This document shows positions 16,443 through 36,143 of a stretch of DNA of 36,607 bases, piece after piece. Both the position numbers and the translations under genes were made by a program. The DNA is from a virus (lineage: Duplodnaviria > Caudoviricetes): the IMG/VR virus record IMGVR_UViG_3300017747_004372, positions 1-36,607 of that record. The stretch is one strand, 5' to 3'. Each line of letters opens with the position of its first letter. The first letter of the stretch is position 1. The notes beneath the pieces were generated by a model. The model ran no database searches. It was not told the DNA's origin and saw only the letters and a list, made by a program, of their open reading frames with translations.

Positions 16443-17819
16443 GTGCCCGCACCTTCAACGACGTCGAACGTCGCAGAGATCCTCAAGGACGTTTACGAGC
16501 AGCTTCGCAACGAGCAGCTCTACACCCGCAAGCCCTTCTGGGACATGCTCCGGAAGAAGAAGAACTTCAACGGGCTCACCCACGAAGTTCCCCTGCGCTA
16601 CTCGCCGGAGCCCGGCGGGTCCGCCACCTTCTCCAGCGCGCTCGCCAACCGGGGCCCCTCGGGCTTCCGCCGGTTCGCCGTCACCCGCAAGAAGGACTAC
16701 GCGACCGCCTCCATCGAGACGGAGCTGGTCCGCGCCGCGAAGGACAATTCCGGCGCCGTCGTGAGCGCCGTCGAAGCCGTGATCCGCGGCATGAAGAACA
16801 CCGCCGAGCGGTCGATCTGCAAAGGCATCTTCGGCAACGGCGGCGGCGCCCGCGCCCAGGTCACCAGCGGCATGGCCTCCAGCACCATCACGCTGCTCAA
16901 CCCCAAGGACATCGTGTGGTTCGAGGCCGGCATGGTCTTGGACGGGTCCGCGGCCGATGGCACCTCCGGCGCGGCCACCGCCGGCGGCGCAGCGGCGAAG
17001 ATCGTCAGCATCAACCGCGACACCGGCACCCTCACCAACGACGCCTCCGCCAACTGGGATGCTGCGACGGGCATCAACTCCCTCGCGGCCAACTGGTACC
17101 TGTTCCGGCAGGGAGACTTCGGCGCCACCATGACCGGGCTCGACGCCTGGATCCCCGCGACCGTGAGCGCCACGGCCTTCTTTGGCGTGGTCCGGACCCT
17201 CGACACCGAGCGCCTCGCGGGCTGCCGCATCACCCCCACCACCACGGGCTACACCTACTCGACCGTCGAGGGCGCCATCACCGCGATCCTCGAAAGGGTC
17301 TACATGGCCGGCGGCGCCCCGGACACGATCCTGCTTCACCCGCAGAGGTACAAGCGCCTCTGCGACGAGCTGGGGGCGAAGCGCCAGTACGTCGACATCA
17401 AGACCGACGCGGGTGTGTCCTTCAAGGGCATCCTCGTAGAAGGCCAGGGCGGGCAGGCGCGTGTGGTCTCCGACCCCTGCTGCCAGCTCGACACGGGCTG
17501 GGCGCTCAGCATGGACACGTGGACGTTCAACACCCTCGGCGACCCGTTCAGCATCGTGGACGACGACGGCAAGGGCATCTGGCTGCGCGAGGGCGACAAC
17601 GACGCCATGCAGGCCCGCCTGGCGACGTTCGGGAATCTCTATTGCGACGCCCCCGCGTACAACGGGCGCTTCAGCCTCACGGGGATCAGCTTATGGCCTC
17701 GGGCAAGGCGCAGTCTCCGGTGCGTCACGCGACGCCCGATGCGGAGCTGTTCGAGGGGTCGTTCGCTCCCGACACGGCCAACGCCCCGACGACCCTCCGG
17801 GGCTCCGGCTTCACCGTGA
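16443..17819 (+). CDS. Major capsid protein (416-aa core plus a 42-aa overlap tail beginning at a TTA codon)
   Basis: GGGGAG SD and GTG start; size, position and HK97-like motifs (MTGLDAWIP, PDTILLHP, VVSDPCC, GNLYCDAP). Confidence 0.88.
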   Translation: MPAPSTTSNVAEILKDVYEQLRNEQLYTRKPFWDMLRKKKNFNGLTHEVPLRYSPEPGGSATFSSALANRGPSGFRRFAVTRKKDYATASIETELVRAAKDNSGAVVSAVEAVIRGMKNTAERSICKGIFGNGGGARAQVTSGMASSTITLLNPKDIVWFEAGMVLDGSAADGTSGAATAGGAAAKIVSINRDTGTLTNDASANWDAATGINSLAANWYLFRQGDFGATMTGLDAWIPATVSATAFFGVVRTLDTERLAGCRITPTTTGYTYSTVEGAITAILERVYMAGGAPDTILLHPQRYKRLCDELGAKRQYVDIKTDAGVSFKGILVEGQGGQARVVSDPCCQLDTGWALSMDTWTFNTLGDPFSIVDDDGKGIWLREGDNDAMQARLATFGNLYCDAPAYNGRFSLTGISLWPRARRSLRCVTRRPMRSCSRGRSLPTRPTPRRPSGAPASP

Positions 17820-18070
17820 CCTACGTGTCCGCGGGCCGGTGGACGGTCACGATCCAGGGCATCGGAGGCGCCACCGTCGTCAAGGCCATCGCGGGCGTCC
17901 AGCTCAACGCGGCGGCGGCGAGCCCCATCGATGTGTCGATCATCGGGGCCACCGCGAGCAGCTCCGGGAACCTCACCTTCGACATCCTCTACCGGGTGAA
18001 CGCGGTGGCGACCAACATCGCCGCCAACGCCAACAACCGGGTCCACTTCTCCGTCACGGTGAGGCCGTGA
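17693..18070 (+). CDS. Beta-rich virion protein (possible capsid decoration)
   Basis: GGGGA SD and ATG at 17693; MASGKAQSPV...GFTVTYVSAGRWTVTI...RVHFSVTV; GC3-rich. Confidence 0.7.
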   Translation: MASGKAQSPVRHATPDAELFEGSFAPDTANAPTTLRGSGFTVTYVSAGRWTVTIQGIGGATVVKAIAGVQLNAAAASPIDVSIIGATASSSGNLTFDILYRVNAVATNIAANANNRVHFSVTVRP

Positions 18071-18273
18071 AAGGCGGCCTCTTGGCCATCCTCGGGGGCA
18101 AGCCCTCGGGCGAGGAGATGAACGAGGGCGACCCCTTCGAGACGGGCTTCTCTGCCTTCCGCAGCGCGCTCAAGAGCGGCGACGCGATGAAGGCGAAGAA
18201 GGCGTTTCGCCTCATGAAAGAGGCGTGTGGCGACGACGACGAAGAGGGCGACGACTACAGCGACGAGGAGTGA
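18067..18273 (+). CDS. Small acidic hypothetical protein of the head module
   Basis: GTGA overlap; VKGGLLAILGGKP...ALKSGD...DDDEEGDDYSDEE. Confidence 0.7.
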   Translation: MKGGLLAILGGKPSGEEMNEGDPFETGFSAFRSALKSGDAMKAKKAFRLMKEACGDDDEEGDDYSDEE

Positions 18274-18279
18274 CCTGCC

Positions 18280-19041
18280 ATGCCGATCCCGATCTCTCAA
18301 GCGTCCCTCCGCACGAGGATCCGGACGGCTGTGCGGCAGCCCAACGCCTCGGGCTTCATCTCCGACACGGAGATCAACGCCTACATCAACGAGGGCGCGT
18401 ACCGGCTCTATAACCTGCTCGTCGCAGCCCGCGGCGAGCACTACTACGCCACCGAGTGGGGGTTCAACACGACGGTGGGCGTCAAGCGCTACCCGTTCCC
18501 CGAAAACTTTTATCGCCTCGTGTCGCTGATGGTGTCGGAGACCCCCGGGGGCTCGCCCTCGGGCACGGTCCAGCCCACCGGCGCCACCTGGTACGAGCTG
18601 CGACGCATGAACCCCGGCGACTGGGCGCTGCAAGAGAGCCTCGCCGGGGACAGCATCCACGAGGTCCGCTACGCCCTCACCGGGCGGCAGCACGAGACCA
18701 CCACCTCCCAGCTCGCGGAGATCGGACTCTATCCGGCGCCCCGCGCGGTGTGGAACGTCCGGACCATCTACCTCCCCACCCTCGACCTCTCCAACGAGAC
18801 CAGCAGCGGTGCCCCGCTGTACGACGGCATCAACGGCTTCGACGAATACATCGTCGCCCACGCCGCGGAGCAGATCGCCGCCATGCAGGAAGACTCCACC
18901 GTGGCCGTCTGGAGGGCGAAGAAGGCCGACATCGAGGAGCAGATCCGGGGCCTCGCCAGCGACCGCGACGGGCACCAGCCCATGCAGGTCCGTGACGTCC
19001 GGTGGGGCCGGGCTCGGCGCGAGAGGTACCCCCGCCCATGA
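18280..19041 (+). CDS. Head-tail adaptor (tail tubular A / P22 gp4-like)
   Basis: LRTRIR...FISDTEINAYINEG...RYPFPENFYRL...LYPAP...FDEYIVAHAA. Confidence 0.75.
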   Translation: MPIPISQASLRTRIRTAVRQPNASGFISDTEINAYINEGAYRLYNLLVAARGEHYYATEWGFNTTVGVKRYPFPENFYRLVSLMVSETPGGSPSGTVQPTGATWYELRRMNPGDWALQESLAGDSIHEVRYALTGRQHETTTSQLAEIGLYPAPRAVWNVRTIYLPTLDLSNETSSGAPLYDGINGFDEYIVAHAAEQIAAMQEDSTVAVWRAKKADIEEQIRGLASDRDGHQPMQVRDVRWGRARRERYPRP

Positions 19042-19352
19042 TCGACCTCCCCACCCTCGACGGCGCCCGCAGCGCAGCCGATGTGACGCGGCTGCTGGGG
19101 CAGTGGCGCGACCGGCTCACCCAGGCGCTCCGGTCGCCCCCCGTGGACCCCCGCGGCGTGCTGCTGAAGGGCATCGACCTGTCCACCACCCCCGTCTCTA
19201 TCGCTCACGGCCTCCCCTCGCTCGGGGGCTGGCTCGTGGTGCGCGCCCGGGGGGCCGCCGCGGCCTCCGTCGTGGAGACCGCGGTGTCAGCGCGCACGCT
19301 GACGCTGGTGGCCTCCGGCGCCGTCACCGTTGACCTGTGGGTGTGGCCGTGA
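19038..19352 (+). CDS. Small virion protein
   Basis: ATGA overlap; ...VSIAHGLPSLGGWLVV...TLTLVASGAVTVDLWVW. Confidence 0.65.
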   Translation: MIDLPTLDGARSAADVTRLLGQWRDRLTQALRSPPVDPRGVLLKGIDLSTTPVSIAHGLPSLGGWLVVRARGAAAASVVETAVSARTLTLVASGAVTVDLWVWP

Positions 19353-22300
19353 GCCTGGCGAAGACCGTCCTGGAGGTCCAGCCCATCGGGGGGCTCGACC
19401 AGTCCCGCGGCGAGTGGGCCACGGTCCCGGGCCCCGGGGGGCTCGCGAGCCAGTTCCACACGTTGGACAACCTCCGGTACACGAAAACCGGTCAGATCGA
19501 GAAGCGCGCCGGGCTCGTGGCGATGTCGTCCGCGGTGCTCGACGGCTACGCCTTCGGGACCAGCACAGACCTCGTGGCCGTCGGCGGCCAGGAGCTGGTC
19601 GCCGTCGGTACCCGCGCGCAGGAGACCTCGACGCAGCCGGGCGAGCCCGGTGCCTACCTCTGGAGCTACAGCCCCTCGGCGGTGAAGTGGGCGCCGAAGA
19701 CCGGCGTCCCGCAGCTCAGCGTGGAGCGCTACCCGGGCGTCCGCGGCGAGACGGACCTCGACAGCGCCGTTACCCAGGTGGCGCGCGTCGGGACCGTCGA
19801 GATGGTCTTGTACACCGTCGGGAGCGACGCCTATGCGCGCATTGTCGACCGCGCGACAGGGACGGTGCTGCTCGACAACACCCAGTTGGTCACCGCGGCG
19901 CTCGCCGGGAAGTACGTCCTCTTTACCTGCGGCGACGGGCTCTTCACCGTCGTCTGGATCACCGGCGCCAACCAGCTCCGCCGCGCCACCCTCAACCCCA
20001 CCACGCTGGCCACGTCCACCGCCAGCGTGGGCGGTGCCTACTCCTTCACCCCCGCGAGCTGGGACGCGATCCCCACCATCTCGGGCAAGTGGGCCATCGC
20101 AGCGCAGGGCGCGGTTCCCGGTGGCGACGTGGCCCTCCGGCGCATCGACAACGCGACCGCAGCCGTGGACGCCACCGCAGCCGAGCTAGGCCGGAGTGGT
20201 ACGCGGCTCTCGCTCGGGTTCCGCATCGGGTACAACTTCCTCCTTCTCGCCTGGGACGATCGTCTCGACATCCGGGCGAAGCACTACGTCGAGAGCACCC
20301 TTGTCACCGCGCTGGTGGACTGGGTGGTTGAGCCCCTCACGAGCTTCTTCGCGGTGCGGAACCTCGCCGCGCAGTTTGACGACCAGAACCGCAGTTTCGT
20401 CCTCATCGGCGCCGAGGATTCCAGCGGGTACGCCTCGCTCGCCCTGCGCGCGTTCGACACGCTAGGCGCCGGTCTCATGAGCCTCCGGCGCATCTACTGG
20501 ACGGGCCTCCAGACGAAGCCATTCCGGCTGGGCGGCGCCCTGTACGCGGTGGTCTGTCGGTACCGGACCGGCGCCGTCAGCGCCCAGGAGAACTACGGCT
20601 ATGCGCTCATCAACTTGTCGAGGCGCTTCGACGCCATCGGCGGGGACTACCCGGTGGCCCTCGAAGGCAACCTCGCCCCCATCGACGGCGTGGGCCTCGA
20701 TGTGGCGACGACGGACGAGCACCTTGCCTGGGTCCAGGTGACGAGCGACGGAGACGCCTACCTCCCCATCGTCGTCAACGCCTCGAACGACGACGCGCCC
20801 GCGGGTACCCCCGACGCTGCCGCCTGGGTGGACGTGGTGCGGCTCCGGTCGGGGCGCGCGGTGGACGGGCTGTGGTCGTGGGCGCACGGGGCCCGGCTCC
20901 TCCACCTGACGAGCGCGCTCCCCGTCCAGTACGACGGCCAGGCCGCGGTCGAGGTCGCGTTCCTGGAGCCCCCGCAGCTCGTGGGGTCCGTGAGCCTGAC
21001 GTATGGAGCTTCCGGCCCTGCCGCGGGCTCGCCGGACAACGTCTACAGCTACCTGATGGTCTGGGAGTGGATCGACGCGCAAGGGCAGATCCACCGGAGC
21101 CGGCTCAGCGCCCCCTTCACCGCGACCATCAGCAGCGGGAGCGGCACCAACGCCATCGTGGACTTCGACGTCAAAACGACGTGCATCACGCGCCGGGGCA
21201 GCAAGGCAGACGGCGACCTGACGCGCCCTCGCCTTGCGGTCTTCCGCACGCTCGCCAACGGGACGGTCTACTACCGCCTCGGCGGGAACGGCGAGGTCAA
21301 CGACCCCGGCGCCGCGACCATCGCGTTCCAGGATGACGAGACGGACGCGACGATTGCCCCGCCTGAGCCGATGCTCCCCCGACCCGGGCTCTACACCGCA
21401 GGCGGCATCCTGGAAAACGAAACGCCTCCGCCGGCCAGGCATGTCCAGGTAGCCGCGCGTCGCGTCTGGCTCACCAGCGCGGAGGGCGCCGAGGTGTGGC
21501 CGTCGCGCGAGATCGTCGCGGCCGAGGCCCCGGCGTTCTCGTCGCTGCTCCGGATCTCGCTGGACGAGGTAGACGAGCGCCTGGTGGGAACCGCATGGCT
21601 CGACGGTGCCCTGGTGATCTTCTCCGAGCGGCGTATCTTCACCCTCGACGCGGGCGCCGGCCCCGGCGACACGGGCCTACCCCCCTGGCCCTCGCCGCAG
21701 GCGCTCCAGAGCAGCGCCGGGTGTACGAGCGGGAGGAGCATCGCCGTTTTCCGCGATGGCGTGATCTACCGCGACCCCGACGGCTTCAAGATCCTGACCC
21801 GCGGGCGCAGCATCATCGACATCGGCGGCGCCGTGCGCGACATCACCGACGCCAACCCGGTGACCCTCGACGTCCAGGTGGACGCGGCGCAGGAGCGGGT
21901 GGTCTTCGTCGTCGCCACCTCAGAGACCGGCACCCCTCAGATCCTGGTGTACGACTACCGGCACACGGGCCCCGATGGCGCCGGCTCGTGGTCCACCTGG
22001 AGCACCGAGGAAGACCCGGCGACGGTACGCGCTGCCATCTGGCAGGGCTCCCTCGTCACGGCCACCAACGGCCCCTGCCTGGAGGGCGACGGCGCTACCC
22101 CGGGCTACGATGGCATCGGCGGCGGCGCGCAGTGGATCACCGGCACCCTCGCCACGCCATGGCTCCGGGTGGGTGCGCTCGGGGGATTCCAGCGGGTGTG
22201 GCGCGCGGTCCTGGAGCTACGCCAGATGAGCGCCCACGGACTCTCGCTGGAGGTCTACGTCGATGGCGACGACACCACCCCGGTCCAGACGGAGACCTGG

Positions 22301-22519
22301 AGCGCGGGCGACGTCGCGGCGCTCCAGGGGCTACCGCGCGAGCGCCTTGTGGTCGGGATGGCGACGCAAAAGTGCCAGTCGATCCGGCTCAAGCTCAGCG
22401 ACACGGCGCCGGCGGTGTCGGTGCCCGAGAACCCCACGGGCTTTCGCTACAGCGGGCTGTCTCTGGAGGTCGGGCAAAAGCAGGGCGTCGACAAGGCGCA
22501 GAAGGCGAACACGAGGTAA
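19349..22519 (+). CDS. Tail nozzle / stabilisation protein (tail tubular B / P22 gp10-like)
   Basis: About 1056 aa, beta-rich; GGLDQ...DNLRY...GQIEKRAG start, LVIFSERRIF, GCTSGRSI, LATPWL...FQRVWR. Confidence 0.75.
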   Translation: MSLAKTVLEVQPIGGLDQSRGEWATVPGPGGLASQFHTLDNLRYTKTGQIEKRAGLVAMSSAVLDGYAFGTSTDLVAVGGQELVAVGTRAQETSTQPGEPGAYLWSYSPSAVKWAPKTGVPQLSVERYPGVRGETDLDSAVTQVARVGTVEMVLYTVGSDAYARIVDRATGTVLLDNTQLVTAALAGKYVLFTCGDGLFTVVWITGANQLRRATLNPTTLATSTASVGGAYSFTPASWDAIPTISGKWAIAAQGAVPGGDVALRRIDNATAAVDATAAELGRSGTRLSLGFRIGYNFLLLAWDDRLDIRAKHYVESTLVTALVDWVVEPLTSFFAVRNLAAQFDDQNRSFVLIGAEDSSGYASLALRAFDTLGAGLMSLRRIYWTGLQTKPFRLGGALYAVVCRYRTGAVSAQENYGYALINLSRRFDAIGGDYPVALEGNLAPIDGVGLDVATTDEHLAWVQVTSDGDAYLPIVVNASNDDAPAGTPDAAAWVDVVRLRSGRAVDGLWSWAHGARLLHLTSALPVQYDGQAAVEVAFLEPPQLVGSVSLTYGASGPAAGSPDNVYSYLMVWEWIDAQGQIHRSRLSAPFTATISSGSGTNAIVDFDVKTTCITRRGSKADGDLTRPRLAVFRTLANGTVYYRLGGNGEVNDPGAATIAFQDDETDATIAPPEPMLPRPGLYTAGGILENETPPPARHVQVAARRVWLTSAEGAEVWPSREIVAAEAPAFSSLLRISLDEVDERLVGTAWLDGALVIFSERRIFTLDAGAGPGDTGLPPWPSPQALQSSAGCTSGRSIAVFRDGVIYRDPDGFKILTRGRSIIDIGGAVRDITDANPVTLDVQVDAAQERVVFVVATSETGTPQILVYDYRHTGPDGAGSWSTWSTEEDPATVRAAIWQGSLVTATNGPCLEGDGATPGYDGIGGGAQWITGTLATPWLRVGALGGFQRVWRAVLELRQMSAHGLSLEVYVDGDDTTPVQTETWSAGDVAALQGLPRERLVVGMATQKCQSIRLKLSDTAPAVSVPENPTGFRYSGLSLEVGQKQGVDKAQKANTR

Positions 22520-22523
22520 CCGC

Positions 22524-23357
22524 ATGGCCATCTGGGACACGGTGAAAAAGGTTGGTGGCGCGGCGCTGGGGATCCCTATCGCCAAGTCCTTTTACGACAT
22601 CCACACGGGCAACGCGGGCACCTACACCCCGGCCACCGCGGATCAGGTCTACTGGGGCGGCGACAAGGGCGCGCAGGGTGCTCGCGTGGACGAGTACGGC
22701 CGGCGCCTTGACGAGGGTTACGGCGCAAGCCAGCGCTTCGAGCAAGCGGGCCTCGAAGGCCGCGGGCTGGAGCGCCAGACCTTCAACGCTTACGAGCAGA
22801 TGAGCCGCGGCGAGGGCCCCAGCGTGGCGCGACAGATGGCCATGCAAGGCGCCAACACGGCGCAGATGCAGGCGAACCAGATGGCCGCCAGCGCCCGCGG
22901 GGGTGGTGGGAACCAGCTCCTGGCGCAGCGCATGGCCCAGCAGACGGGCGCCCAGGCCCAGCAGCAGGCCAGCGCCACCGCGGCGCAGCTCGGGCAGCAG
23001 GAGCAGCTCGCTGCCATGAGCGCCATGGGTGACATGGCCTCGCGGCTCCGGGCGGGCGACGCGAGGGCGCAGGAGATGGCCGCCGGTCGTGGGCGTGACT
23101 TCCTCGGGGCTCGGCAAGGCGTCGAGGGCGCATCGTTCCAGGGCGAGCAGCAACGCTCGCTCGCCAACATGGAGGCCGCGAACATGGCCAGCCAGGAAGA
23201 CCTCAAGAGCAAGCGCGAGGCGAGGGCGCAGCGGGCGTCGATGTTCGAGAAGGCCGCGGGAATGGGCGCCGCCGCCGCGAAGGGCGGGCCCAGTGCCTTA
23301 CAACAGCTACCGACGCGAGACGAACCCCGCCGGGGTGCCCGTCTACAACCTCTATGA
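22524..23357 (+). CDS. Putative internal virion/ejection (pilot) protein 1
   Basis: GAGG SD and ATG at 22524; Ala/Gln/Met-rich, GEGPSVARQ motif; follows the nozzle. An in-frame TTA lies at 23298. Confidence 0.65.
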   Translation: MAIWDTVKKVGGAALGIPIAKSFYDIHTGNAGTYTPATADQVYWGGDKGAQGARVDEYGRRLDEGYGASQRFEQAGLEGRGLERQTFNAYEQMSRGEGPSVARQMAMQGANTAQMQANQMAASARGGGGNQLLAQRMAQQTGAQAQQQASATAAQLGQQEQLAAMSAMGDMASRLRAGDARAQEMAAGRGRDFLGARQGVEGASFQGEQQRSLANMEAANMASQEDLKSKREARAQRASMFEKAAGMGAAAAKGGPSALQQLPTRDEPRRGARLQPL

Positions 23358-24729
23358 AGACGACGGCGATGCGCCCTCGCTCACCCTGCCCCAGGGTGGC
23401 GCCGCGGATCAGTTCGTCCTGACGATCCCCGAGCGCGAGGACATGCGGCTCGCGAAGGGCGGCGCGGGCGAACAGAACCAGAGCGGCGGCGACGGGATGA
23501 TGAGCCGCATGGACGCGCAGCCAGCCCCACAGCCGGCGCCCGCCCCCGCGTCGACCGCGGACACGAGGCCGCCGCCCGCGCCGCCCATCCCCACCGGAGC
23601 CCCTCCGGTGCCACAGGCGCCCCCGCTCACGGGTCGCAGCGGGCAGACCTTCGACCTCCTCGGAAGGCTCAACCGGCGCGACCTGACGGCCACGCAGAGC
23701 GCCAGCGAGAAGGACACGAACGTCACCCTCGAAGGCAAGGCCATCGACCCGGCGCTGGTGGAGGAAGAGCGCGCGCTGCGGCTGGGCGTGGCCCGTGGCG
23801 AGCTGCGGCAGATCGACGAACGCGAGCGCGGTGCGGCGCTGGCGAGCTACCTGGAGCCGAAGCGGGCTGCCGCAGCCGACGAGCTGACGGCGCAGACCGG
23901 AGCCCTCCGGGGGCAGGGCGACCAGCGCCGGCTGGAGGCCATGCAACAGATCCAGAAAGACATCGACGAGGAGAACAAGAAGGGCGGCTTCTGGGAGACG
24001 CGCAACGAAGACCAGGTGCTTCGGACCATCCTCGGCGCCGTCTCCGCGGTGTTCGCCTCCCCCCAGGTCGCCGCGTCGTACTTCGATGACGTCTACAAGG
24101 GCTGGCAGGACAAGAAGACGAAGAAGCTCGCCGCGCTCGAAAAGAAACGCGGCATGACGGGTGAATACTGGGACCTCTACCGCAAGCAGCTTGACGAGTT
24201 CGAGGGACGCGAGCTTGACCGCATCAACCGCAAGATTGCCGGTGTCGCGTCGCGGGGGTTGCCCCCGAAGGAGCAGCAGGAGTTCGCCGCGTGGTTCCAG
24301 AAGAACCAGCAGAACCCCGCCGCGGGGCTGGCACCGGCGAGCGTCGCAGCGGTGCGCCAGGAGACCGAGAAGAAGGTCCAGGCGATCACCGCGAAGAAGA
24401 CGCTGACCCCGAAGGACAAGGCCGACCTGAAGCGACTGGAGGGCGACATCGTTGCCCTCGGCGCTCTAGAGGGCAAAGTTGCCGCCCGCGACGTGACCCG
24501 CGAGCCCATCCCCGCCGGTGCCCTGGGCGCCATGCAGGCCCGCGCGGGTGCGTCGCAGGGCCCCGGGGGGTTGCGCACGGCGCCCTCCGCGGGCCCCGTC
24601 GCCGCCGCACCACCACCGGCGCCCCCGGTGCGCCCCTCGATGGACCCGGCCGTGCTCCGGCAGCTCCAGGAGGAAGAGCGCCGCACCCTCCAGACCCTCC
24701 GCTCCCGCGACACAAAGGACATCCGATGA
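23293..24729 (+). CDS. Putative internal virion/ejection protein 2
   Basis: GTG at 23293 (VPYNSYRR...), GC3-rich from there on; helical with Pro-rich linkers. Confidence 0.6.
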   Translation: MPYNSYRRETNPAGVPVYNLYEDDGDAPSLTLPQGGAADQFVLTIPEREDMRLAKGGAGEQNQSGGDGMMSRMDAQPAPQPAPAPASTADTRPPPAPPIPTGAPPVPQAPPLTGRSGQTFDLLGRLNRRDLTATQSASEKDTNVTLEGKAIDPALVEEERALRLGVARGELRQIDERERGAALASYLEPKRAAAADELTAQTGALRGQGDQRRLEAMQQIQKDIDEENKKGGFWETRNEDQVLRTILGAVSAVFASPQVAASYFDDVYKGWQDKKTKKLAALEKKRGMTGEYWDLYRKQLDEFEGRELDRINRKIAGVASRGLPPKEQQEFAAWFQKNQQNPAAGLAPASVAAVRQETEKKVQAITAKKTLTPKDKADLKRLEGDIVALGALEGKVAARDVTREPIPAGALGAMQARAGASQGPGGLRTAPSAGPVAAAPPPAPPVRPSMDPAVLRQLQEEERRTLQTLRSRDTKDIR

Positions 24730-28425: not shown

Positions 28426-28431
28426 TCGACC

Positions 28432-29520
28432 ATGGCTGACACGAAAATCTCTGCACTTTCCGCAGGCACACAGCCTGCGGGCACCGAGGAGATCCCCGCC
28501 GTCCAAGGGGGCGCTACCGTCAAGCTCACGGTGACGCAGGTGCGCCCCCGGGTGAACCGCACCGGCGCCGCGCCGACCGTCTCCGACGACTCCGCCGCGG
28601 GCTACACCGTGGGCTCCGTCTGGGTCGATACGCGGGTGGGCTACGGCTACACCTATGACCTGATCGACGCCACCGCGGGCGCCGCTGTCTGGAAGGTCCG
28701 CCCCATCGCGTTCGTCTACACGACCCCGGGCGCCGCTACCTGGAATGAGCCCGTGGGCACATTCTCCGGCGTGCTCGTCGAGATGGTGGCGGGCGGCGGC
28801 GGCGGAGGCAGCGGACGCCAGGGCGCAGCGGCTACGGTCCGCTGTGGCGGTGGCGGTGGCGCGGGCGGTGGCAGAGCCGGGCCCTTTTTCATCGCGGCGG
28901 CGGCGCTGGGGGTCACCGAGACCGTGACGGTGGGCTCCGGTGGTCCTGGCGGTGCGGCGGCAGGGACCGCCGACACCAGCGGCAACGGCGGGACCGCGGG
29001 CGCCAACAGCTCCTTCGGCAGCCACATCCGCGCGCTCGGCGGGGGGCTGGGCTCCGGAGGCACCGCCACGACCGGCACCGGCGGGAGCAGCGGCACTGGC
29101 GAGCAGGCGGGCAGCAACGGCGGCACGGCCTCGACCACCGGCCTCGTCGGCGTCGCAGGGACCGCGTCGGTGGGCGGTGGTGCCGGTGGTGGCAGCGGCG
29201 GCGGCATCACCTCGGCCAACGCGACCAGCGGCGGCGGAGCTGGCGGCGGTCGCTGGACCGTCTGGGGTGGCGCCGCGGGCGGCACCGCGGGCGCTGTGGC
29301 CGGCGCTGGCGGTCCTGGACCTGCGGCCCCCACCGGGAGCAGCCAGGGCGGCGGTGGTGGCGGCGGTGGTGGCTCGGGCTCGGGTGTCGCGGGCGGCGCG
29401 GGCGCTGCGGGCGGCGTCTACGGCGCGGGTGGCGGCGGTGGCGGCGCCAGCCTCAACGGCTTTGCTTCAGGTGCGGGCGGGGCTGGTTCCGCAGGCATCG
29501 TGATCGTGAACGTGTTCTGA
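28432..29520 (+). CDS. Glycine-rich fibre protein
   Basis: MADTKISAL start, APTVSDDSAAGYTVGSVW motif, Gly-rich domain ending GAGSAGIVIV. Confidence 0.8.
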   Translation: MADTKISALSAGTQPAGTEEIPAVQGGATVKLTVTQVRPRVNRTGAAPTVSDDSAAGYTVGSVWVDTRVGYGYTYDLIDATAGAAVWKVRPIAFVYTTPGAATWNEPVGTFSGVLVEMVAGGGGGGSGRQGAAATVRCGGGGGAGGGRAGPFFIAAAALGVTETVTVGSGGPGGAAAGTADTSGNGGTAGANSSFGSHIRALGGGLGSGGTATTGTGGSSGTGEQAGSNGGTASTTGLVGVAGTASVGGGAGGGSGGGITSANATSGGGAGGGRWTVWGGAAGGTAGAVAGAGGPGPAAPTGSSQGGGGGGGGGSGSGVAGGAGAAGGVYGAGGGGGGASLNGFASGAGGAGSAGIVIVNVF

Positions 29521-29532
29521 AAGAAGGTCAGC

Positions 29533-29817
29533 ATGGCGAACATCGGTGACATTGGGCTTTTTGGCATCGCCAGCGGCGAGAATCGTCCCTGCGTGGTGGT
29601 GAGCGGCGCGAAGGATATCGAGGGCATCGTCTATTACGACATCAACGTCGACGTGGGCCCGGACGATAACGATTACCTGAACGATATCGAGAAGAAGGAA
29701 TACCAGCCCGGCCAGCCCATCGGGGACAACAACTACCAGCACGCGGTGCGGGTGATCGCGCGGCGCGCTCGCAAGAGCACCAGCCCTCCCGAGGTCGGTC
29801 GGTTCTGGATCCCGTGA
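29533..29817 (+). CDS. Small hypothetical protein, lower GC
   Basis: AAGG SD; MANIGDIGLF...RPCVVV...GRFWIP. Confidence 0.7.
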   Translation: MANIGDIGLFGIASGENRPCVVVSGAKDIEGIVYYDINVDVGPDDNDYLNDIEKKEYQPGQPIGDNNYQHAVRVIARRARKSTSPPEVGRFWIP

Positions 29818-30209
29818 TGGCGACCCTCCGCAGCGTTCCGCCACCGCCCGATCTCCGGGAGCGTCTCGACTCCGCTGAGAACGCGGTGGCGGATGCGCTT
29901 GTGGAGATGCAGGAATCGAACGCCAAGCTCGAAGACAAGATCGCCGCGCTCACCGCGGAAAACGCCCAGCTTCGCGCTGACCACGACCGGGAAATGGCTC
30001 GCGCGTGGAAAGCGTGGGGCTGGCAAACGACGCTGCTGGCGCTCGCCGCCATCGCAGCAAATATCATCGCGGCAAACGTATGGAGGCTCGATAAACGTGA
30101 CCGATATTCAACTCCTCATCACGTGGGCGCAGGCCCATCCGCTCCAGGCGTGCGGCGCGGTGCTGGCGCTGGCGCTGATGGCGCTGGCCCAGGTGAGGCT
30201 CACCCGTGA
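29817..30209 (+). CDS. Coiled-coil protein with a C-terminal TM segment (lysis-associated?)
   Basis: TGATG coupling; coiled coil, then WGWQTTLLALAAIAANIIAA. Overlaps the next gene by 113 nt. Confidence 0.55.
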   Translation: MATLRSVPPPPDLRERLDSAENAVADALVEMQESNAKLEDKIAALTAENAQLRADHDREMARAWKAWGWQTTLLALAAIAANIIAANVWRLDKRDRYSTPHHVGAGPSAPGVRRGAGAGADGAGPGEAHP

Positions 30210-30399
30210 CCAGGCGCTGCGGTGGCCTCGCCTCGCGGCGCTGATCGTCGTGGCCCACAAGGTCGCGCCGGTGCTCCGCGGGCTGCTGAAGCCGCTCGCG
30301 GGCGTTGGCTCTGCAAAGGTCGCCCTGGAGGTGGTCGACCTGATTTTCCCCTCGACGCCTAGCAGCAACCCTCCCCCTCCGTCCAAAGAGGCACCATGA
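30097..30399 (+). CDS. Holin-like membrane protein
   Basis: GGAGG SD and GTG at 30097; hydrophobic segments; located in the lysis region. Confidence 0.5.
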   Translation: MTDIQLLITWAQAHPLQACGAVLALALMALAQVRLTRDQALRWPRLAALIVVAHKVAPVLRGLLKPLAGVGSAKVALEVVDLIFPSTPSSNPPPPSKEAP

Positions 30400-30740
30400 A
30401 GCACCTCGATCTCGCCGTGTGGTTTTTTATCGGTCTGTCTTGGTGGTCGTGCAAGCCGTTGCCCTCTGCCTCGCCGGAGCCGAACCCCGACCCGGCGGCG
30501 AAGCTCGCTGAGGTGATCGAGCGCGTAGAGCGCATCGCCCCGGTGGCGCTGGCCGCGTGTAGCCTCGCCGCGGAGGACAAGAGGCCCGCGTGCGAGGAGG
30601 CGGCCCATGTCCTCGCCGCTGCGGCTGCGGAGGGGCGGGCGGTGATGCACACCCTCGACCGCTGCCGCGAGGAGCAGGACGAGGAGTGCGTGGCCCTGGC
30701 CATCGAGCGGGCGGCCGAGCTGGTACGGGTGCTTCGGTGA
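30396..30740 (+). CDS. Predicted lipoprotein (spanin-like?)
   Basis: Signal MKHLDLAVWFFIGLSWWS-C with a lipobox-like Cys, then a helical body with four more Cys. Confidence 0.55.
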   Translation: MKHLDLAVWFFIGLSWWSCKPLPSASPEPNPDPAAKLAEVIERVERIAPVALAACSLAAEDKRPACEEAAHVLAAAAAEGRAVMHTLDRCREEQDEECVALAIERAAELVRVLR

Positions 30741-30826
30741 GCCGGGACCGCGCCACGGCCATCGCGCTGTGCCTCGCCGGGCTGGCCCTGGCGGCGCTGG
30801 TGCTGCGGGTCTGGAGGCTCCTGTGA
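30737..30826 (+). CDS. 29-aa single-TM peptide
   Basis: GTGA overlaps at both ends; VSRDRATAIALCLAGLALAALVLRVWRLL. Confidence 0.55.
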   Translation: MSRDRATAIALCLAGLALAALVLRVWRLL

Positions 30827-31467
30827 GCGCGGACAGCATCGGCCTCGCGGCTCACCGGCTCGTCGGGCTGTCCTGGGGCGACGAGGCGACCCGGCGCGAC
30901 TACTCGCGGATACTCGCCCCCTGGGATAGCGAAGAGCGCGCGGTCCTGATGGCGAGCGAGCAATCGAGCTGCGCGCTGGTCGTGGCGGCGGTCCTGCTCA
31001 TCGCAGAGGTCGACGGGATGGTGAGGGGCTGGCGCGGCAAGGTGGCCTGCGATCCCCTACGCGAGCCACGCTGGCAGAGGTACGATAGCGTCGCGTACCT
31101 GGAGCAGCTCGCGCGCCAGCGCGGCGTCTACAAGGGCGCCGGGAAGGAGAAGCCCGACCTCCGCCCCGGTACCTGGTGGACGGTCGGGAGCGGCAAGGGG
31201 GACGAGCACGTCGAGGTGGTCGTGGAGGTCGATGGCGAGGACATCGTGTGCGTCGGGGGCGGCAAGCTGGACCCGCGCAACCCCAGGCCGGGGGCGAAGG
31301 GATGCACCCGCATCGCCCTCGGGAGGCACCGGCTCACCCAGGCGCACGGGCGGTGGGTGCTCGCGGGGCGCCCGCTGCTCTACACGGCGGACGCCACGGA
31401 GCTACCCTGCCTCCAGGTGGGCGAGCGCAAGGGGATGCCCTGGGCGGCCATCGGGGTGAAGCCGTGA
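30823..31467 (+). CDS. Putative CHAP/NlpC-P60-like cysteine peptidase
   Basis: SSCALVV (catalytic Cys candidate), PDLRPG, EHVEVVVEV (His candidate), IVCVGGG. Confidence 0.5.
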   Translation: MSADSIGLAAHRLVGLSWGDEATRRDYSRILAPWDSEERAVLMASEQSSCALVVAAVLLIAEVDGMVRGWRGKVACDPLREPRWQRYDSVAYLEQLARQRGVYKGAGKEKPDLRPGTWWTVGSGKGDEHVEVVVEVDGEDIVCVGGGKLDPRNPRPGAKGCTRIALGRHRLTQAHGRWVLAGRPLLYTADATELPCLQVGERKGMPWAAIGVKP

Positions 31468-32219
31468 GCCGCGCCGTCCTCGCCCCGGAGGTGCTCGATC
31501 ACTGGATCCGCCACACGGAGCGGTACGAGGGCAGGATCCCGTGGATGTACCTCGACATCCGGGGCCTCGTCACCATCGGCGCCGGCGTGCTCGTGGACCC
31601 CGTGGAGCTCGCCATGCGGCTCCCCCTCCAGCTCGACGGACGCCAGGCCTCCCCGAGTGAGATCGCCGCCGAGTGGCGCGCGCTGAAGGCCCGTCCCTCG
31701 CTCGCCCAGCAGGGCGCCGCCGCTGCGGGCAGGGTGGCCCGGCTGCGCCTCACCGGAGCCGACCTCGACGCCCTCACGTGGGCGCGGCTGGACTCGACGG
31801 TGAGGGCGCTGGTGAGGCGGTGGCCTGGCCTCCCCGGGTGGCCCTGGCAGGCGCAGCTTGCCGTCTGCTCCTGGGCCTGGGCGGTGGGCGCGGCGGCGCA
31901 GGGATGGCCTCGATTCGAGGCGGCCTTGCACGCCCAGGACTGGACCACCGCGGCCGAGCAGTGCCGGATCCGCGACGAGGACAACCCGGGGGTCACCCCG
32001 CGCAACGCGGAGAATCGACGGCTCTTCCTGGAGGCCGCCGCGGGGGCCACGACGGTGCCGCCCCCGGAGGATCGCCCGTCGAGTCCCCCGGTCGTGATCG
32101 TGGACGATGAGGCGCCGGCGACCGACCGGCTCCCTGTGGGCGAGGTCGCGGCGCTGGTGGCAGAGACCGGGGACCAGCTCGCCCGGGAGCTGCTCGCCGA
32201 GGGGTACCGGCGGCGCTGA
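31464..32219 (+). CDS. Endolysin, T4-like/GH24 lysozyme fold
   Basis: YEGRIPWMYLDIRGLVTIGAG (E-X8-D-X5-T triad), WPRFEAAL...DW..AA, RNAENRRLF. Confidence 0.85.
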   Translation: MSRAVLAPEVLDHWIRHTERYEGRIPWMYLDIRGLVTIGAGVLVDPVELAMRLPLQLDGRQASPSEIAAEWRALKARPSLAQQGAAAAGRVARLRLTGADLDALTWARLDSTVRALVRRWPGLPGWPWQAQLAVCSWAWAVGAAAQGWPRFEAALHAQDWTTAAEQCRIRDEDNPGVTPRNAENRRLFLEAAAGATTVPPPEDRPSSPPVVIVDDEAPATDRLPVGEVAALVAETGDQLARELLAEGYRRR

Positions 32220-32235
32220 GACTCGACGGGACCGC

Positions 32236-32468
32236 GGTCCCGATCCCGGTCCCGATAGGGCCCCCGGGGGCACATCCTGGCGTGACGTACCCCGCGGTTT
32301 AGCGGCCTTTCCGTACCTGTGGAGGATTTAGGTTCCGACGCCTCACGGCGTGTGGGTTCAAGTCCCTCCTTGCGCACAAGTCCTGAATATTACAGGGAAA
32401 TCCCCTCCCCTCCCGGGCCCTCGACAGGGGGGCCCTCCGGGGGTTCCGGTCCCGATTCCGGTCCCGAT
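32236..32468. mobile_element. attP region: tRNA core flanked by arm-type repeats
   Basis: GGTCCCGAT at 32236, 32248, 32448 and 32460 (two 12-bp-period pairs) around the tRNA fragment. Confidence 0.85.
32324..32377 (+). tRNA. 3' half of tRNA-Leu(TAG) forming the attP common core (not a complete gene)
   Basis: GGA-TTTAGGT-TCC anticodon arm, long variable arm CGCC-TCAC-GGCG, T-arm GGGTTCAAGTCCC, acceptor strand CTTGCGC-A; no 5' half or D-arm upstream. Confidence 0.88.
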
Positions 32469-33578
32469 AGCCTTCCCCCCGCAGGCGCCGTCGAGGGCAG
32501 GGCACCGGGCTGGCGGGTCCAGCGCCAGGAGCGCGGCGCGGGCCCCTTCCGCCTGCGGGTGGAGGTAGTGATCGGTGGTGCCGGCGCTCCGGTGCCCGGC
32601 CAGGAGCTGGAGCCCTCCCCTCGTGGCCCCCGCATCGCTGAGGTGGGTGAGGCGCGCATGCCGAAGGTCGTAGGGACAGACCCGCGAGGCCCGGTCCGCG
32701 TCGAGGCCGCTCGCCTTCCCTGCGATCCTGAAGAGCTTGTCCATCCGGTACCGCCCCCAGAGCGGGCCCTCCCCGAGCGGGGCGTGCTCTTCGAGCAGCT
32801 CCACAGCGCGGCGGCTCAGCGGCACCGCCCGGCCCATCTGAGCCTTGTCTTGGTCGTCGCCGATCACCAGCTCGCGGCGTCCTCGATCCCAGGCCCGGGG
32901 GCGGACCAGCCGGGCGACGGTCGCGGGGCGCAGGCCCGTCTCGTACAGGAACTCGGCGTAGGCTCGCACGGGGTACAGGCTCCCCCCGCGCACCGGGCGA
33001 GGGCTCCAGGGGGGCAGCGCCGCCAGCAGCCGGGCGACCTCCTCGGGGCTCAGGGGCACCGGGCGGCGGTCTCGCTGGCGGGTGCCGGCGGCACGGGCGG
33101 GGAGGGAGAGCGCGGGCACCTCGGCGAGCAGCTCCTGGTCAAGGCACCAGCGGAGGAAGCCCGACAGCGCGGACTTTTCTTTCCGCGCGGTCTTGCGGCT
33201 CACCTCCCCCAGGCGATCCCGGAGGTAGGCACGGAGCGCCGAGGAGGTCAGGTCCGCGAGGCGCTCCCACCGCGCGAGCCAGCGCCGGGCGTAGCCGAGG
33301 TACGTCGCGCGGGTCTTCGGGTCGAGCCCCCCGGGGCCTTCGAGGCTGGCGAGCCAGGATGCACACAGCTCCGGGAGCGGAGCGGCGACGGTGGCTACGC
33401 TGCGCGGGTGCCGGCGCCCTTCGACGACCTCGGCGTACACCCTCGGGGCGGCGCGCTCAGCTTCGCCAGGATCGCCCGTGCGGAGGGAGACCTTGTGACG
33501 GTGCCCCTCGTGGCGGAACCTGACGAAGAAGACGCCGTCTTGCTGGACGATTTGGAATCCTCGCGGCTTTCGAGCCAT
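32358..33578 (-). CDS. int: Tyrosine integrase
   Basis: Arm-binding N-terminus (FFVRFRHEGHRHKVSLRTGD); catalytic motifs ETGLR, YDLRH, LAGH, TTDHY. Confidence 0.95.
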   Translation of the reverse strand: MARKPRGFQIVQQDGVFFVRFRHEGHRHKVSLRTGDPGEAERAAPRVYAEVVEGRRHPRSVATVAAPLPELCASWLASLEGPGGLDPKTRATYLGYARRWLARWERLADLTSSALRAYLRDRLGEVSRKTARKEKSALSGFLRWCLDQELLAEVPALSLPARAAGTRQRDRRPVPLSPEEVARLLAALPPWSPRPVRGGSLYPVRAYAEFLYETGLRPATVARLVRPRAWDRGRRELVIGDDQDKAQMGRAVPLSRRAVELLEEHAPLGEGPLWGRYRMDKLFRIAGKASGLDADRASRVCPYDLRHARLTHLSDAGATRGGLQLLAGHRSAGTTDHYLHPQAEGARAALLALDPPARCPALDGACGGKAIGTGIGTGTPGGPPCRGPGRGGDFPVIFRTCAQGGT

Positions 33579-33721
33579 TCGAGCAGCTTCTTTCGGTGGT
33601 AGAGCGGGCTCCCCGAGAGGCGCTCTGGTGGGAAGTGGGGGTCAATCTTCCGGAGCACGGTGCGCTCCGAGCAGTGGAGCAGGGCGGCAACCTGCTCGCG
33701 GGTGAGGTAGAGGGGCTCCAT
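33395..33721 (-). CDS. xis: Excisionase (HTH_17/Xis-like) with a Ser-rich tail overlapping int
   Basis: YLTREQVAALLHCSERTV...PLYHRKKLLEWL; directly upstream of int. Confidence 0.8.
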   Translation of the reverse strand: MEPLYLTREQVAALLHCSERTVLRKIDPHFPPERLSGSPLYHRKKLLEWLESREDSKSSSKTASSSSGSATRGTVTRSPSARAILAKLSAPPRGCTPRSSKGAGTRAA

Positions 33722-33785
33722 ACCGCCACAGCCCCCGGGCTCCGGTTCTCCGGGGCGACGGGGGCGCGGTGGACAGGGCGAGGGG

Positions 33786-33881
33786 CTACCGCCTCTCCCT
33801 CCCGGAGACGGCGAGGCTGCTACCGACCGCCAGCGCCAGGAGGGCGAGGCCGGCCAGCATTTCGAGGATGCCTTGGGTCAC
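33786..33881 (-). CDS. 31-aa single-TM peptide
   Basis: GTGA overlap; VTQGILEMLAGLALLALAVGSSLAVSGRERR. Confidence 0.5.
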   Translation of the reverse strand: MTQGILEMLAGLALLALAVGSSLAVSGRERR

Positions 33882-34249
33882 GGTGTCACCCCGCCCGGTA
33901 GCGTCGTCAGACTGGCCACAGCGCGCAGCACCTCGGCCCACGGCCTATCGGTCGTGGTGCCCGTGTGGCAGGCGTCGCAGGCGTCGCGCTTGGCTGCGTG
34001 GTCCACCACCGTGGCAACGGCGCCGCACGCACACGACGGGCACCGGGCTAGCATTTCCAGGACGGCGAGGTGCAACGCGCGATAGTCCCGGACGGCGGCG
34101 CTCATGGCGTCTTCTGCCTCGGCGAGAGAGTATCCGCGCTCCTGGTTGAGTACGATGCGCTGCAATCGGGTCGTGGCGTCGGGGTCCACGGGGAGCCGTC
34201 CGCGGAGGTCGGCGATGGCGGCGCGTGACAGGATGAGGCGACGGATCAC
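33878..34249 (-). CDS. Hypothetical zinc-finger protein
   Basis: GTG at 34249 with AAGGAG SD; CPSCACG...ACDAC. Confidence 0.7.
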   Translation of the reverse strand: MIRRLILSRAAIADLRGRLPVDPDATTRLQRIVLNQERGYSLAEAEDAMSAAVRDYRALHLAVLEMLARCPSCACGAVATVVDHAAKRDACDACHTGTTTDRPWAEVLRAVASLTTLPGGVTP

Positions 34250-34452
34250 GGCTCCGCTCCTTCCTCGTGGCAGGTAGGGCAGCGGTCGCACGCGATGCCC
34301 TCGACCACATCCCGGTAGACCACGGCGACCCGGGCCCCGCAGGCGTCGCAGATCGGCGTGGGGTCCGGAGCCGCGTCGCGCTCGCGGAGGTAGGCGGCCT
34401 CCAGGGGGCGAGGGTGCTGAGGGCGCCAGGGGGAGCGGGCGGTGCGGGTCAT
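34246..34452 (-). CDS. Small zinc-ribbon protein
   Basis: GGAGG SD and ATGA overlap; CDACG...CDRCPTC. Confidence 0.7.
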   Translation of the reverse strand: MTRTARSPWRPQHPRPLEAAYLRERDAAPDPTPICDACGARVAVVYRDVVEGIACDRCPTCHEEGAEP

Positions 34453-34811
34453 GACTTCCTCCCGGCGACCAGCGAGAGGAGGCCCGCGGGGCTGAGGCCA
34501 CGCTCCCCTCGCAAGAGTCCGATCCCCCGGTGGAGGTGTGCGCGCAGCGCCTGCGGCGCGGCGTCGCCGTGGCGCTCCACGATGCACGCCCAGTAGAGCG
34601 GGGCGTAGCGCCCGCCGAGGGTGGCCCAGGTGATCTCCAGGCCATCGCCGGGGAGCTGGTGCGTCGGCGGGTCGGAGGGCACCGCCAGCGAGAGGGCGAG
34701 GGCCCAGCGGCAGGGGGCGGCGAAGGTGGTGAGGCGGGTCTTTGTCCGGATCCACAGGAGCCAGGTGCGCTCCTCAGCGGAGAGGCGGAGGGTGGTGGGT
34801 GGCGCGATCAC
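34449..34811 (-). CDS. dndE: DndE-like protein (DNA sulfur-modification protein family), 120 aa
   Basis: GGGAGG SD and GTG at 34811. LRLS...L..IRTKT, CRWALALSLAVP..PP, LEITWATLGG.Y and LRAHLHRGIGLL match the DndE signatures (I.LS, CRWA..SL..P, E.W..FGG, R.HLHRGI..L) in order, spacing and length, as I recall them. Confidence 0.8.
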   Translation of the reverse strand: MIAPPTTLRLSAEERTWLLWIRTKTRLTTFAAPCRWALALSLAVPSDPPTHQLPGDGLEITWATLGGRYAPLYWACIVERHGDAAPQALRAHLHRGIGLLRGERGLSPAGLLSLVAGRKS

Positions 34812-35215
34812 AGGCGCCTCCCGCGAGCGCAGCCACAAGACCGCGTGTTGCCGGAGCGGAGGGCGGTGGTCGTGATGACGGCCTCGGCGCCGCAGTCGCA
34901 GAGGCAGTGCCACGCCTTGCGGCTGTGGCCGTGCTGATCGGGGGCGCGGTCTCCGACCAGCAGGCGGCCGAAGCGCTGTCCCGTCAGGTCCAGGGGCCTC
35001 CGTCCGGTCTTCCCCCGGCGACCGCAGCCGCACGAGCGAATCTGCCCCGAGCGGAGGTTGCTACCGGTGACGTTGGTGCGGGCCCCGCAGTCGCAGAGGC
35101 ACCACCAGGCGGAGCGCCGGCCGGAGAGGAAATCGCGCACCGGCGCCGGCTCCTGGACGGTGAGGCGGCCGAAGCGCCGGCCGATCATGTCGATGGGCTT
35201 CCGTCCGCGGGTCAT
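34808..35215 (-). CDS. Protein of two tandem G.RFGRL.V / W.C.CDCG / SCGC zinc-binding domains
   Basis: ATG at 35215 with AGGAGG-like SD; two complete repeats and no HNH or AP2 domain. Confidence 0.85.
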   Translation of the reverse strand: MTRGRKPIDMIGRRFGRLTVQEPAPVRDFLSGRRSAWWCLCDCGARTNVTGSNLRSGQIRSCGCGRRGKTGRRPLDLTGQRFGRLLVGDRAPDQHGHSRKAWHCLCDCGAEAVITTTALRSGNTRSCGCARGRRL

Positions 35216-35742
35216 GACGCCCTCTTGATGAGCACGAGCCCGCCGTCGCACCGCTTGGGGCAGTAGAGCAGCGCCCCCTCTCGACGGCGCGTAGTGCCGC
35301 ACTCGGGACAGGGGGAGGCCAGGACGGGCTTCTTCGCCGGACGCTCGGGGGGCTCGGGGCGCTCGTGCTTGTGCAGCCGGTGCCATTCGAGGGCCTTTGC
35401 CTTCTTCGCGGCCTCCGACTTCGCCTTGCACTCAGGGCAGTAGCGAAGCTGGGAATCGGGGGCCTCGAAGCGCACGGGGCAGCCCCGGGTCCGGCAGGGG
35501 TAGAGGAGCGACGCGGGAGGCTCCTCCGCCGAGAGGAGCTGGAGCCCCGCGAGACGCTCCGCGGGGGCCCTGCCGCCGGCCAGCAGACGCCGGAGTAGGT
35601 CCACGGACACGCCCCCGCGGTGCGCTACCTCCTCCTCCGAGGTGCGGCGCTGCCAGGCCCGGAGCAGGAAGCGGACCCGGTGCGAGAGGGTGGCGAATCC
35701 CTCCAGGGTCAGGTAACGGGTGTGGGGATTGCTGTAGCCCAT
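35212..35742 (-). CDS. HTH plus two zinc-ribbon protein
   Basis: GGAGG SD and ATG at 35742; EEVAHRGGVSVDLLRRLL, CRTRGC...YCPEC, CPECG...YCPKRC. Confidence 0.75.
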   Translation of the reverse strand: MGYSNPHTRYLTLEGFATLSHRVRFLLRAWQRRTSEEEVAHRGGVSVDLLRRLLAGGRAPAERLAGLQLLSAEEPPASLLYPCRTRGCPVRFEAPDSQLRYCPECKAKSEAAKKAKALEWHRLHKHERPEPPERPAKKPVLASPCPECGTTRRREGALLYCPKRCDGGLVLIKRAS

Positions 35743-36143
35743 AACGACTTCCTCCGGCATCCGCAGGTCTTTGTGTGCCCTCTTTTGAGGTCGTGGGCGT
35801 AGACCGCCCTGGGCGTCCCGCAGTCGCATCGACAGAGCCAGCGGGACTCACCGGCGGCGCCATCGGGGCCGGGGCCCTCGACCACGAGCCTGCCGAATCG
35901 CTCGCCCACGGGGACCGCGAGGCGGCGGCGCTCCTTGGCCTCGCGACCGAGGCAGCCGCACGAGCGGGTGTTGTCGCGCCGGAGGTTGTCCGCGGCCACG
36001 GAGACCCGCTCGCCGCAGTCGCACACGCACCACCAGGCGGGTAGTGTGCGATCTATGCGGCGGCGCCTTGGAGCGGGGCCCTCGACCACCAGGCGGCCGT
36101 GCCGAGTGCCGGCGTGGATGGGCGTGCGTGGGCGCTCGTTCAC
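35709..36143 (-). CDS. Second protein of two tandem CxCDCG/SCGC zinc-binding domains
   Basis: GGAGG SD and GTG at 36143; paralogous to 34808..35215; in-frame TTA at 35744-35742. Confidence 0.85.
   Translation of the reverse strand: MNERPRTPIHAGTRHGRLVVEGPAPRRRRIDRTLPAWWCVCDCGERVSVAADNLRRDNTRSCGCLGREAKERRRLAVPVGERFGRLVVEGPGPDGAAGESRWLCRCDCGTPRAVYAHDLKRGHTKTCGCRRKSLWATAIPTPVT

Follow-up and report, generated by a model that had tools for sequence, protein, structure and literature searches.

The phage genome held as IMG/VR record IMGVR_UViG_3300017747_004372 (Duplodnaviria; Caudoviricetes) appears to use the leucine codon UUA to end proteins. We analysed the record over its whole length, referred to here as the window, which is a complete 36,607-base temperate phage genome of 71% GC. 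In-frame TTA is found at gene ends and, in relatives, changes places with TGA or TAA at homologous codons, a pattern that makes UUA most likely a fourth stop codon. Judging from this comparison of genes, it is quite probable that a class-I release factor of the host recognises UUA as a genuine stop. A wider picture is also reasonably likely: a free-living lineage, likely within Myxococcota, with four stops (UAA, UAG, UGA and UUA), 60 sense codons and an altered release factor 2 (RF2), to which a temperate phage would have adapted, with its capsid gene ended by UUA and a tRNA-Leu attachment (att) site pointing to the host.

The end of the capsid gene

The major capsid protein gene (16443..17693, plus strand; PHROG 14242 major head protein, Pfam SU10_MCP) encodes 416 aa if TTA ends it and 458 aa in translation table 11. 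The TTA in question (17691..17693, plus strand) is capsid codon 417. It lies at the position where homologues stop and forms the junction TTATG, in which its A also opens the ATG of the following gene. A capsid search gave 54 homologue clusters, 33 of which bear one of two C-terminal anchors. Sixteen of these 33 end within 0-2 residues of the stop position and the other 17 run on, all 17 with leucine at the stop position followed by 1-160 more residues. In the first anchor group (20 clusters), nine end no more than two residues from ...GI and 11 read GI-x-Leu-Trp/Cys, as expected if TTA-TG is translated, which gives Leu-Trp or Leu-Cys. Those 11 are the clusters closest to the window (66-97% identity), with tails that carry the proteins to 471-539 aa. 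The second group (13 clusters) has seven that end after ...PAP and six that read PAP-Leu plus 1-160 residues. The run-on codon is TTA in all five records with DNA (L001, L002, L004, L007 and L003, the window's own record).

The tail behind TTA looks like a by-product of the neighbouring gene. Compared with L004, 10 of its 40 residues are identical, against 34 of 40 in the frame of the overlapping gene, and 28 of the 40 base changes in this region fall at third positions of that gene. Capsid lengths inside one 90% cluster range from 458 to 539 aa. These comparisons indicate that the capsid tail is not under selection. The conserved frame belongs to the gene after the capsid (17693..18070, plus strand; 125 aa), which matched no family and had no match in NCBIfam; that it decorates the head is a guess.

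TTA at other gene ends

The window holds 46 TTA triplets, 28 on one strand and 18 on the other. A codon-model gene caller placed 54 genes on it, covering about 11,000 codons and ending in 49 TGA, three TAA, two TTA and no TAG. The in-frame TTAs in called genes are those of the capsid gene and at 23298. The caller missed a zinc-domain gene that bears a third, at 35744-35742 on the minus strand, and we examined this gene by hand. The first-pass annotation of the window had listed just these three codons and held that each stands where a stop belongs, with an off-frame tail behind it. The open reading frames and gene calls bore out the list, with 41, 18 and 10 codons from TTA to the next standard stop, and the claim about position stood with one refinement. 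The capsid TTA is at the homologue stop, the zinc-domain TTA agrees with the length of a paralogue, and the TTA at 23298 lies near the homologue stop, three codons downstream of it.

The second site (23298..23300, plus strand) closes the gene for a putative ejection or internal virion protein 1 (22524..23300, plus strand), which has no family match. The protein would be 258 aa long if TTA ends it; its 12 best full-length homologues have 253-305 aa. The site belongs to the 8 nt, GTGCCTTA, that this gene shares with the one after it (23293..24729, plus strand; 478 aa), where it falls within the Pro-Tyr codons CCT TAC. At the third site (35742..35744, minus strand), a gene for a zinc-domain repeat protein (35742..36143, minus strand; PHROG 374, HNH-associated) meets the gene at 35742-35212 in a TTATG overlap. 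Cut at TTA this protein has 133 aa, as the first-pass annotation had also noted, against 135 aa for a paralogue of 47% identity that stops at TGA (34808..35215, minus strand).

Metagenome contigs confirmed the codons. Run X1, which may be the source run, gave contigs with no differences over all three sites, and there were none either in an X9 contig (23236-24237) and an X12 contig (35519-36212) that cover the second and third. The capsid-end TTATG is also present in records L001 and L002. Together these rule out sequencing error as the source of the TTAs. About one or two internal TTAs (TTG x CTA / CTG) would be expected in the window, so that finding none at 71% GC means little and is non-significant in the window alone. 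It is the position of TTA that carries weight: by a rough estimate, the chance that all three would lie no more than five codons from a gene end is roughly 2e-4.

Other genes in relatives show the same exchange, TTA standing for TGA or TAA at homologous codons of the tail and winged-helix genes. Six records have a stop after NTR in the large tail gene, which in L008 closes with ANTR-TTA. The putative winged-helix-like gene of the window (36140..36568, minus strand) ends LWRRR-TGA, and its homologue in G007 ends LWRRK-TTA. The capsid gene of L007 ends PAP-TTA where homologues have PAP-TGA. In L006 one long frame is divided by a TTA into an upstream gene and that of the terminase large subunit, whose start comes just after the TTA, and in L004 a TTA behind a ParB-like zinc-finger gene is a candidate end. 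There are nine distinct TTA junctions in all. Five are TTATG and the remaining four differ in frame or have no adjacent start; the capsid TTA of L007, for example, has no overlapping start codon.

The suggestion that TTA is a special coupling signal did not survive this comparison. The TTA junctions do resemble the 1-nt and 8-nt overlaps of the genome, as had been proposed: called genes overlap by 4 nt in 25 cases, by 1 nt in three (one of them TTATG) and by 8 nt in two (one of them the overlap at 23298). Nearly all of these 30 junctions have ordinary stops, however. As most gene pairs overlap using TGA, coupling is not special to TTA, and the L007 capsid TTA has no start to couple to. Where TTA overlaps the start codon that follows, we read this as termination-reinitiation coupling of the ordinary kind. 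A much longer overlap without TTA (30097-30209), cited in the first-pass annotation as a caveat, is present as described and is arranged identically in G008. It comes from a gene at 29814-30209 with a coiled coil, a membrane segment and a low-complexity tail that runs 113 nt onto the next gene.

Two further ends were seen outside this set. Two genes of L059, a distant integrase relative that may use TTA internally, end in TTATGA, that is TTA-TGA (2719, minus strand, and 13888-13893). In L010 an open reading frame in the scaffold position (1753-2706) has its sole TTA 10 codons upstream of its stop.

TTA inside genes

Counting TTA in relatives, a check named in the first-pass annotation, showed it concentrated at homologue stops and gave a clear result within genes. 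The window is too rich in GC for the absence of a codon to be visible, so the moderate-GC kin L004, L006 and L007 (56-58% GC) are the informative genomes. In their regions aligned to window proteins there was no TTA among 642 leucine codons, against 13 among 388 in outgroups of similar GC (G010, G011 and L013; Fisher p=2.7e-6). Two genomes were kept outside the test, L012 as a near-copy of G011 and L010 with its 63.5% GC (no TTA in 958 aligned codons). TTA was the only sense codon that the moderate-GC kin did not use; the next rarest had 20 uses in 6,767 codons, and UUG and UCA, with 98 and 26 uses in the same set, are still sense. Leucine was counted with curated queries, an automatic all-frames homology count having been discarded because it was swamped by shadow frames. 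Two of the curated queries were faulty, 'ej2' lying in the wrong frame and 'terS' having too early a start, which touches the totals of the window, G007 and G008 and not the Fisher test.

We also asked the gene model which of 58 codons would serve as a stop. The window's gene map was improved by TTA alone, and in G007 TTA was the top one of six, in a test mildly biased by training genes that had been cut at TTA. The control is meaningless for L008, as the model discards genes that run off contig ends. Two Actinomycetota genomes of 70-71% GC had rare TTA within genes, and one of them (G211) has a tRNA-Leu(taa) and an RF2 with the SPF motif. The use of internal TTA in these controls shows that high GC by itself is not enough to drive TTA to the ends of genes.

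Several observations weigh against a fourth stop, or against its reach. One is an internal TTA in L015, at portal codon 189 (2545-2547). The codon is TTC in G009, whose DNA is 96% identical, and the column holds F, W or Y in all other homologues shown. Possible explanations of this codon, the only counter-example in close kin, are an error, a nonsense variant and a relative living in a standard-code host. No TTA-ended gene was found in G009 (28 kb) or G012 (38 kb), nor in L015, which belongs to the subgroup of G009. Integrase relatives of 30-38% identity (L055, L058 and L061) have TTA within genes, so that the code would be restricted. About 15 of the 17 run-on capsid clusters are known as protein, which gives the residue, leucine, but not its codon. 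The second TTA site is near, not at, the homologue stop: L001, 93% identical, has TGA three codons upstream, and because the window has lost this TGA, the TTA at 23298 catches the frame. That TTA is, besides, fixed by the codons of the overlapping next gene. The proposed host has its own difficulties, since the link to a Myxococcales metagenome-assembled genome (MAG) depends on one 20.7-kb contig, perhaps wrongly binned, and a MAG labelled Actinomycetota contains L015.

Attachment site and host

A tyrosine integrase gene (32358..33578, minus strand; PHROG 1, PF00589) has its last codons within what is probably the attP core (32322..32378, plus strand), the 3' half of a tRNA-Leu(UAG) gene directly behind the integrase. 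The integrase end, CAQGGT, overlaps the half-tRNA, and this ending is common to many integrase homologues. A 16-mer of the core lies in ARAGORN-called tRNA-Leu(tag) genes of eight of 10 other records. Rfam gave nothing at the half-tRNA, and none of the loose ends listed for four runs lay at the att site. Within the integrase gene, the window has an A at 32398, in the C-terminal part, where all four runs compared, X1 included, have C; the A is probably an assembly error.

The provirus G012, otherwise a different phage, has 283 bp of the att and integrase end in common with the window at 93%. It carries two half-tRNA copies that enclose an integrase remnant and lie about 470 bp from each other. 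Its flanks hold genes for a glycerol-3-phosphate dehydrogenase and for a lipoprotein-like protein whose closest Atlas clusters (0.92) belong to Myxococcota. Its host-side genes (786, 195 and 345 aa, plus a cut one) have no in-frame or terminal TTA, which is uninformative at 70% GC. A MAG labelled 'Myxococcales bacterium' holds both a capsid of the closest cluster with a run-on tail (MBK9073241.1) and a homologue of the ejection protein (MBK9073235.1). From MAG binning and sequence similarity, the host is likely to be a Myxococcota bacterium.

Wider scans added little. The capsid alignment found one locus in the genome collection, in an Actinomycetota MAG. The att core matched one of 401 Actinomycetota genomes, with three mismatches, and that genome has standard machinery. 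Scans of IMG/VR with the att motif returned G007, G008, G012 and unrelated tRNA arrays only. Against the annotated phage collection the capsid had no match and integrase matches reached at most 32%. An RF2 motif scan gave two loci, both plain SPF, and the RF2 genes seen belong to other organisms. The 21 matches of a tail-end motif scan were all judged to be chance.

The phage genome

A 123-nt terminal repeat at both ends of the window (1..123 and the last 123 bases) makes the contig a complete circular genome. PHROG and Pfam profiles identified an SU10-like capsid and adaptor, a portal, a VapE-type helicase, a methylase and the tyrosine integrase. All 24 runs listed for the window are freshwater or lake metagenomes, none of them an RNA run. 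We found no tRNA genes in the window and saw no release factor in the phage proteins (40 open reading frames scanned). In G007, TAG ends one or two of about 57 genes. The scarcity of TAG at gene ends may be caused by RF2-dominated termination in the host.

The replication helicase (6536-8952) has 43% identity to that of G007, whereas 27.7 kb of the two genomes align at 93%, which points to a swapped replication module. Contigs of X1 and X15 skip 368 bases (33878-34246), a deletion variant between short repeats that would remove one 123-aa gene. A DndE-like domain (PF08870, E=1e-13) is encoded at 34449-34811 on the minus strand, in the integrase-side operon.

Discussion

We infer from these comparisons that a release factor frees the peptide at UUA, that the host has lost its tRNA-Leu(UAA), that RF2 is involved over RF1, and who the host is. 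The exchange of TTA with TGA and TAA, its absence within genes of the kin with moderate GC and the lack of conservation in the tails all support termination at UUA, one of the three roles (unassigned, hungry or terminating) offered in the first-pass annotation. The reader is likely to be RF2 rather than RF1, given that RF2 reads UAA and UGA, that no called gene of the window ends in TAG and that substitutions at RF2 Ser204 occur in organelles with UUA stops. A plausible route would start with GC pressure, which may have made UUA nearly extinct in the host lineage. The host tRNA for UUA could then have been lost and the specificity of RF2 widened from UAA and UGA to UUA. Once UUA terminates, TGATG or TAATG junctions could drift to TTATG.

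UUA may instead be unassigned in the host, with ribosomes stalling at it and the protein freed by rescue of the ArfB or ArfA type or by drop-off of peptidyl-tRNA. This predicts the same genomic pattern, UUA never occurring inside genes and being tolerated at their ends, and drop-off at UUA is discussed in the accessible text of PMC10732093. According to the same text, a stall at an empty codon brings about cleavage of the mRNA, rescue by tmRNA and, in many cases, proteolysis, which would be a poor end for the most abundant virion protein. That the major capsid gene ends at TTA in 11 clusters of 66-97% identity thus argues against a mere stall, and selection should oppose the repeated gain of TTA in place of working stops if stalling were its only effect. 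We consider an unassigned UUA unlikely. A conditional UUA of the bldA kind, the hungry codon of the first-pass annotation, would require a regulated tRNA-Leu(UAA), proteins ending or gaining tails according to the state of the cell, and could act as a sensor of lysis and lysogeny. The phage is temperate, Streptomyces phages exploit UUA and the state of the host tRNA (PMC10732093, accessible text), and L015 has its one internal TTA. Control by bldA acts on internal UUA, however, whereas in the window and moderate-GC kin we saw no internal UUA of this type, even at 56-58% GC. Because TTA ends the capsid gene and is absent inside conserved coding regions, a hungry codon is disfavoured. The tails range from 1 to 160 residues and are shaped by the frame of the overlapping gene, and the att core was found, with its three mismatches, in just one of the 401 Actinomycetota genomes. 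A conditional UUA seems to us very unlikely.

The TTAs might alternatively be programmed frameshift or bypass sites that fuse the upstream protein to the next, for example capsid to decoration protein, for which T7 gp10A/10B provides a frameshift capsid precedent. Five of the nine junctions are TTATG and stand in a constant -1 relation to the gene that follows, and UUA is reported to trigger bypassing in the terminase of a Streptomyces phage (PMC10732093, accessible text). In the remaining four the frame differs or, as in L007, no start lies next to the TTA, and the nine have neither a fixed frame nor conserved stimulatory signals in common. No slippery heptamer lies upstream of the capsid TTA, and there is no consistent downstream structure, folding being unremarkable at four of five sites (z -1.33 to +1.22; L008 -2.06). 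The 416-aa capsid would, moreover, itself have no end. Such a fusion is highly improbable. Finally, TTA could be plain leucine, left by losses of TGA in AT-rich start regions, with the tails tolerated. TGATG becomes TTATG by one substitution, the TTA at 23298 did arise through loss of a TGA, and the window alone could not reveal depletion of the codon. Yet single changes to a stop codon give many residues and only leucine is found in the 17 run-on clusters; TTA recurs in five or more unrelated genes and is missing from the 642 internal leucine codons of the moderate-GC kin; and random capsid tails of 40-120 residues would need to persist over 66-97% identity. We find it hardly credible that UUA is simply leucine here, and return to termination at UUA as the preferred reading.

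Codes with a UUA stop are known from organelles, among them that of labyrinthulean mitochondria (NCBI table 23). According to the accessible text of PMC12574857, UUA stops are published for labyrinthulean mitochondria, for peDinoflagellate plastids (UUA and UCA) and for the green-algal mitochondria of Marsupiomonadales (UUR). The plastid case was called the first sense-to-stop change outside mitochondria in 2025, and RF2 Ser204 substitutions accompany UUA stops in two organelle lineages (PMC12574857). The likeness to the phage is close: the codon is the same, it stands at 3' ends where homologues stop, and it is missing inside coding regions, with the exception of L015. Unlike these cases, ours concerns a phage whose host is presumably a free-living bacterium of high GC, not a small organelle genome, and unlike the UUA/UCA plastids and the UUR mitochondria, the phage kin keep UUG and UCA as sense codons. 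The code change is in print for mitochondria and plastids only, to judge from the accessible literature, in which we found no bacterial or phage UUA stop, subscription journals being outside its coverage.

The phage also bears comparison with bldA of Streptomyces and with phage Hau3, in whose terminase UUA triggers bypassing (PMC10732093, accessible text). Common to both are a rare UUA, a high-GC host, a temperate phage and out-of-frame sequence after UUA. In the Streptomyces systems, however, UUA stays leucine and lies inside a gene, where it is bypassed to rebuild the full-length protein. Our phage, unlike Hau3, has TTA at protein ends, where it changes places with stops and keeps no fixed frame to the next gene.

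Phages that read UAG as glutamine are familiar, and to our knowledge the code changes of bacteria run from stop to sense or between two amino acids. The known bacterial and phage alternative codes include UGA as Trp or Gly, a stop-to-sense change, and sense reassignments screened by Codetta (PMC8629427, accessible text). Like these, the change proposed here is restricted to a lineage and visible by homology, and unlike them it runs from sense to stop. The Codetta screen, the largest of prokaryote codes, is blind to new stops by its own account in that text and left 5,539 sense codons uninferred (PMC8629427); a UUA stop would have been left among them.

A temperate phage must rely on the machinery of its host, and its att site makes that host findable, adding a handle on the host to the case for a UUA stop. 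If the fourth stop is real, the host would provide a natural release factor with a new codon specificity in a free-living bacterium, and a test case for reverse codon capture under GC pressure. Database entries for the lineage would then also include proteins wrongly lengthened or fused, something to which the 17 run-on capsid clusters point. Genes in the standard code that contain TTA would be cut short on entering such a cell, and the code may thus form a barrier to phages and to gene transfer.

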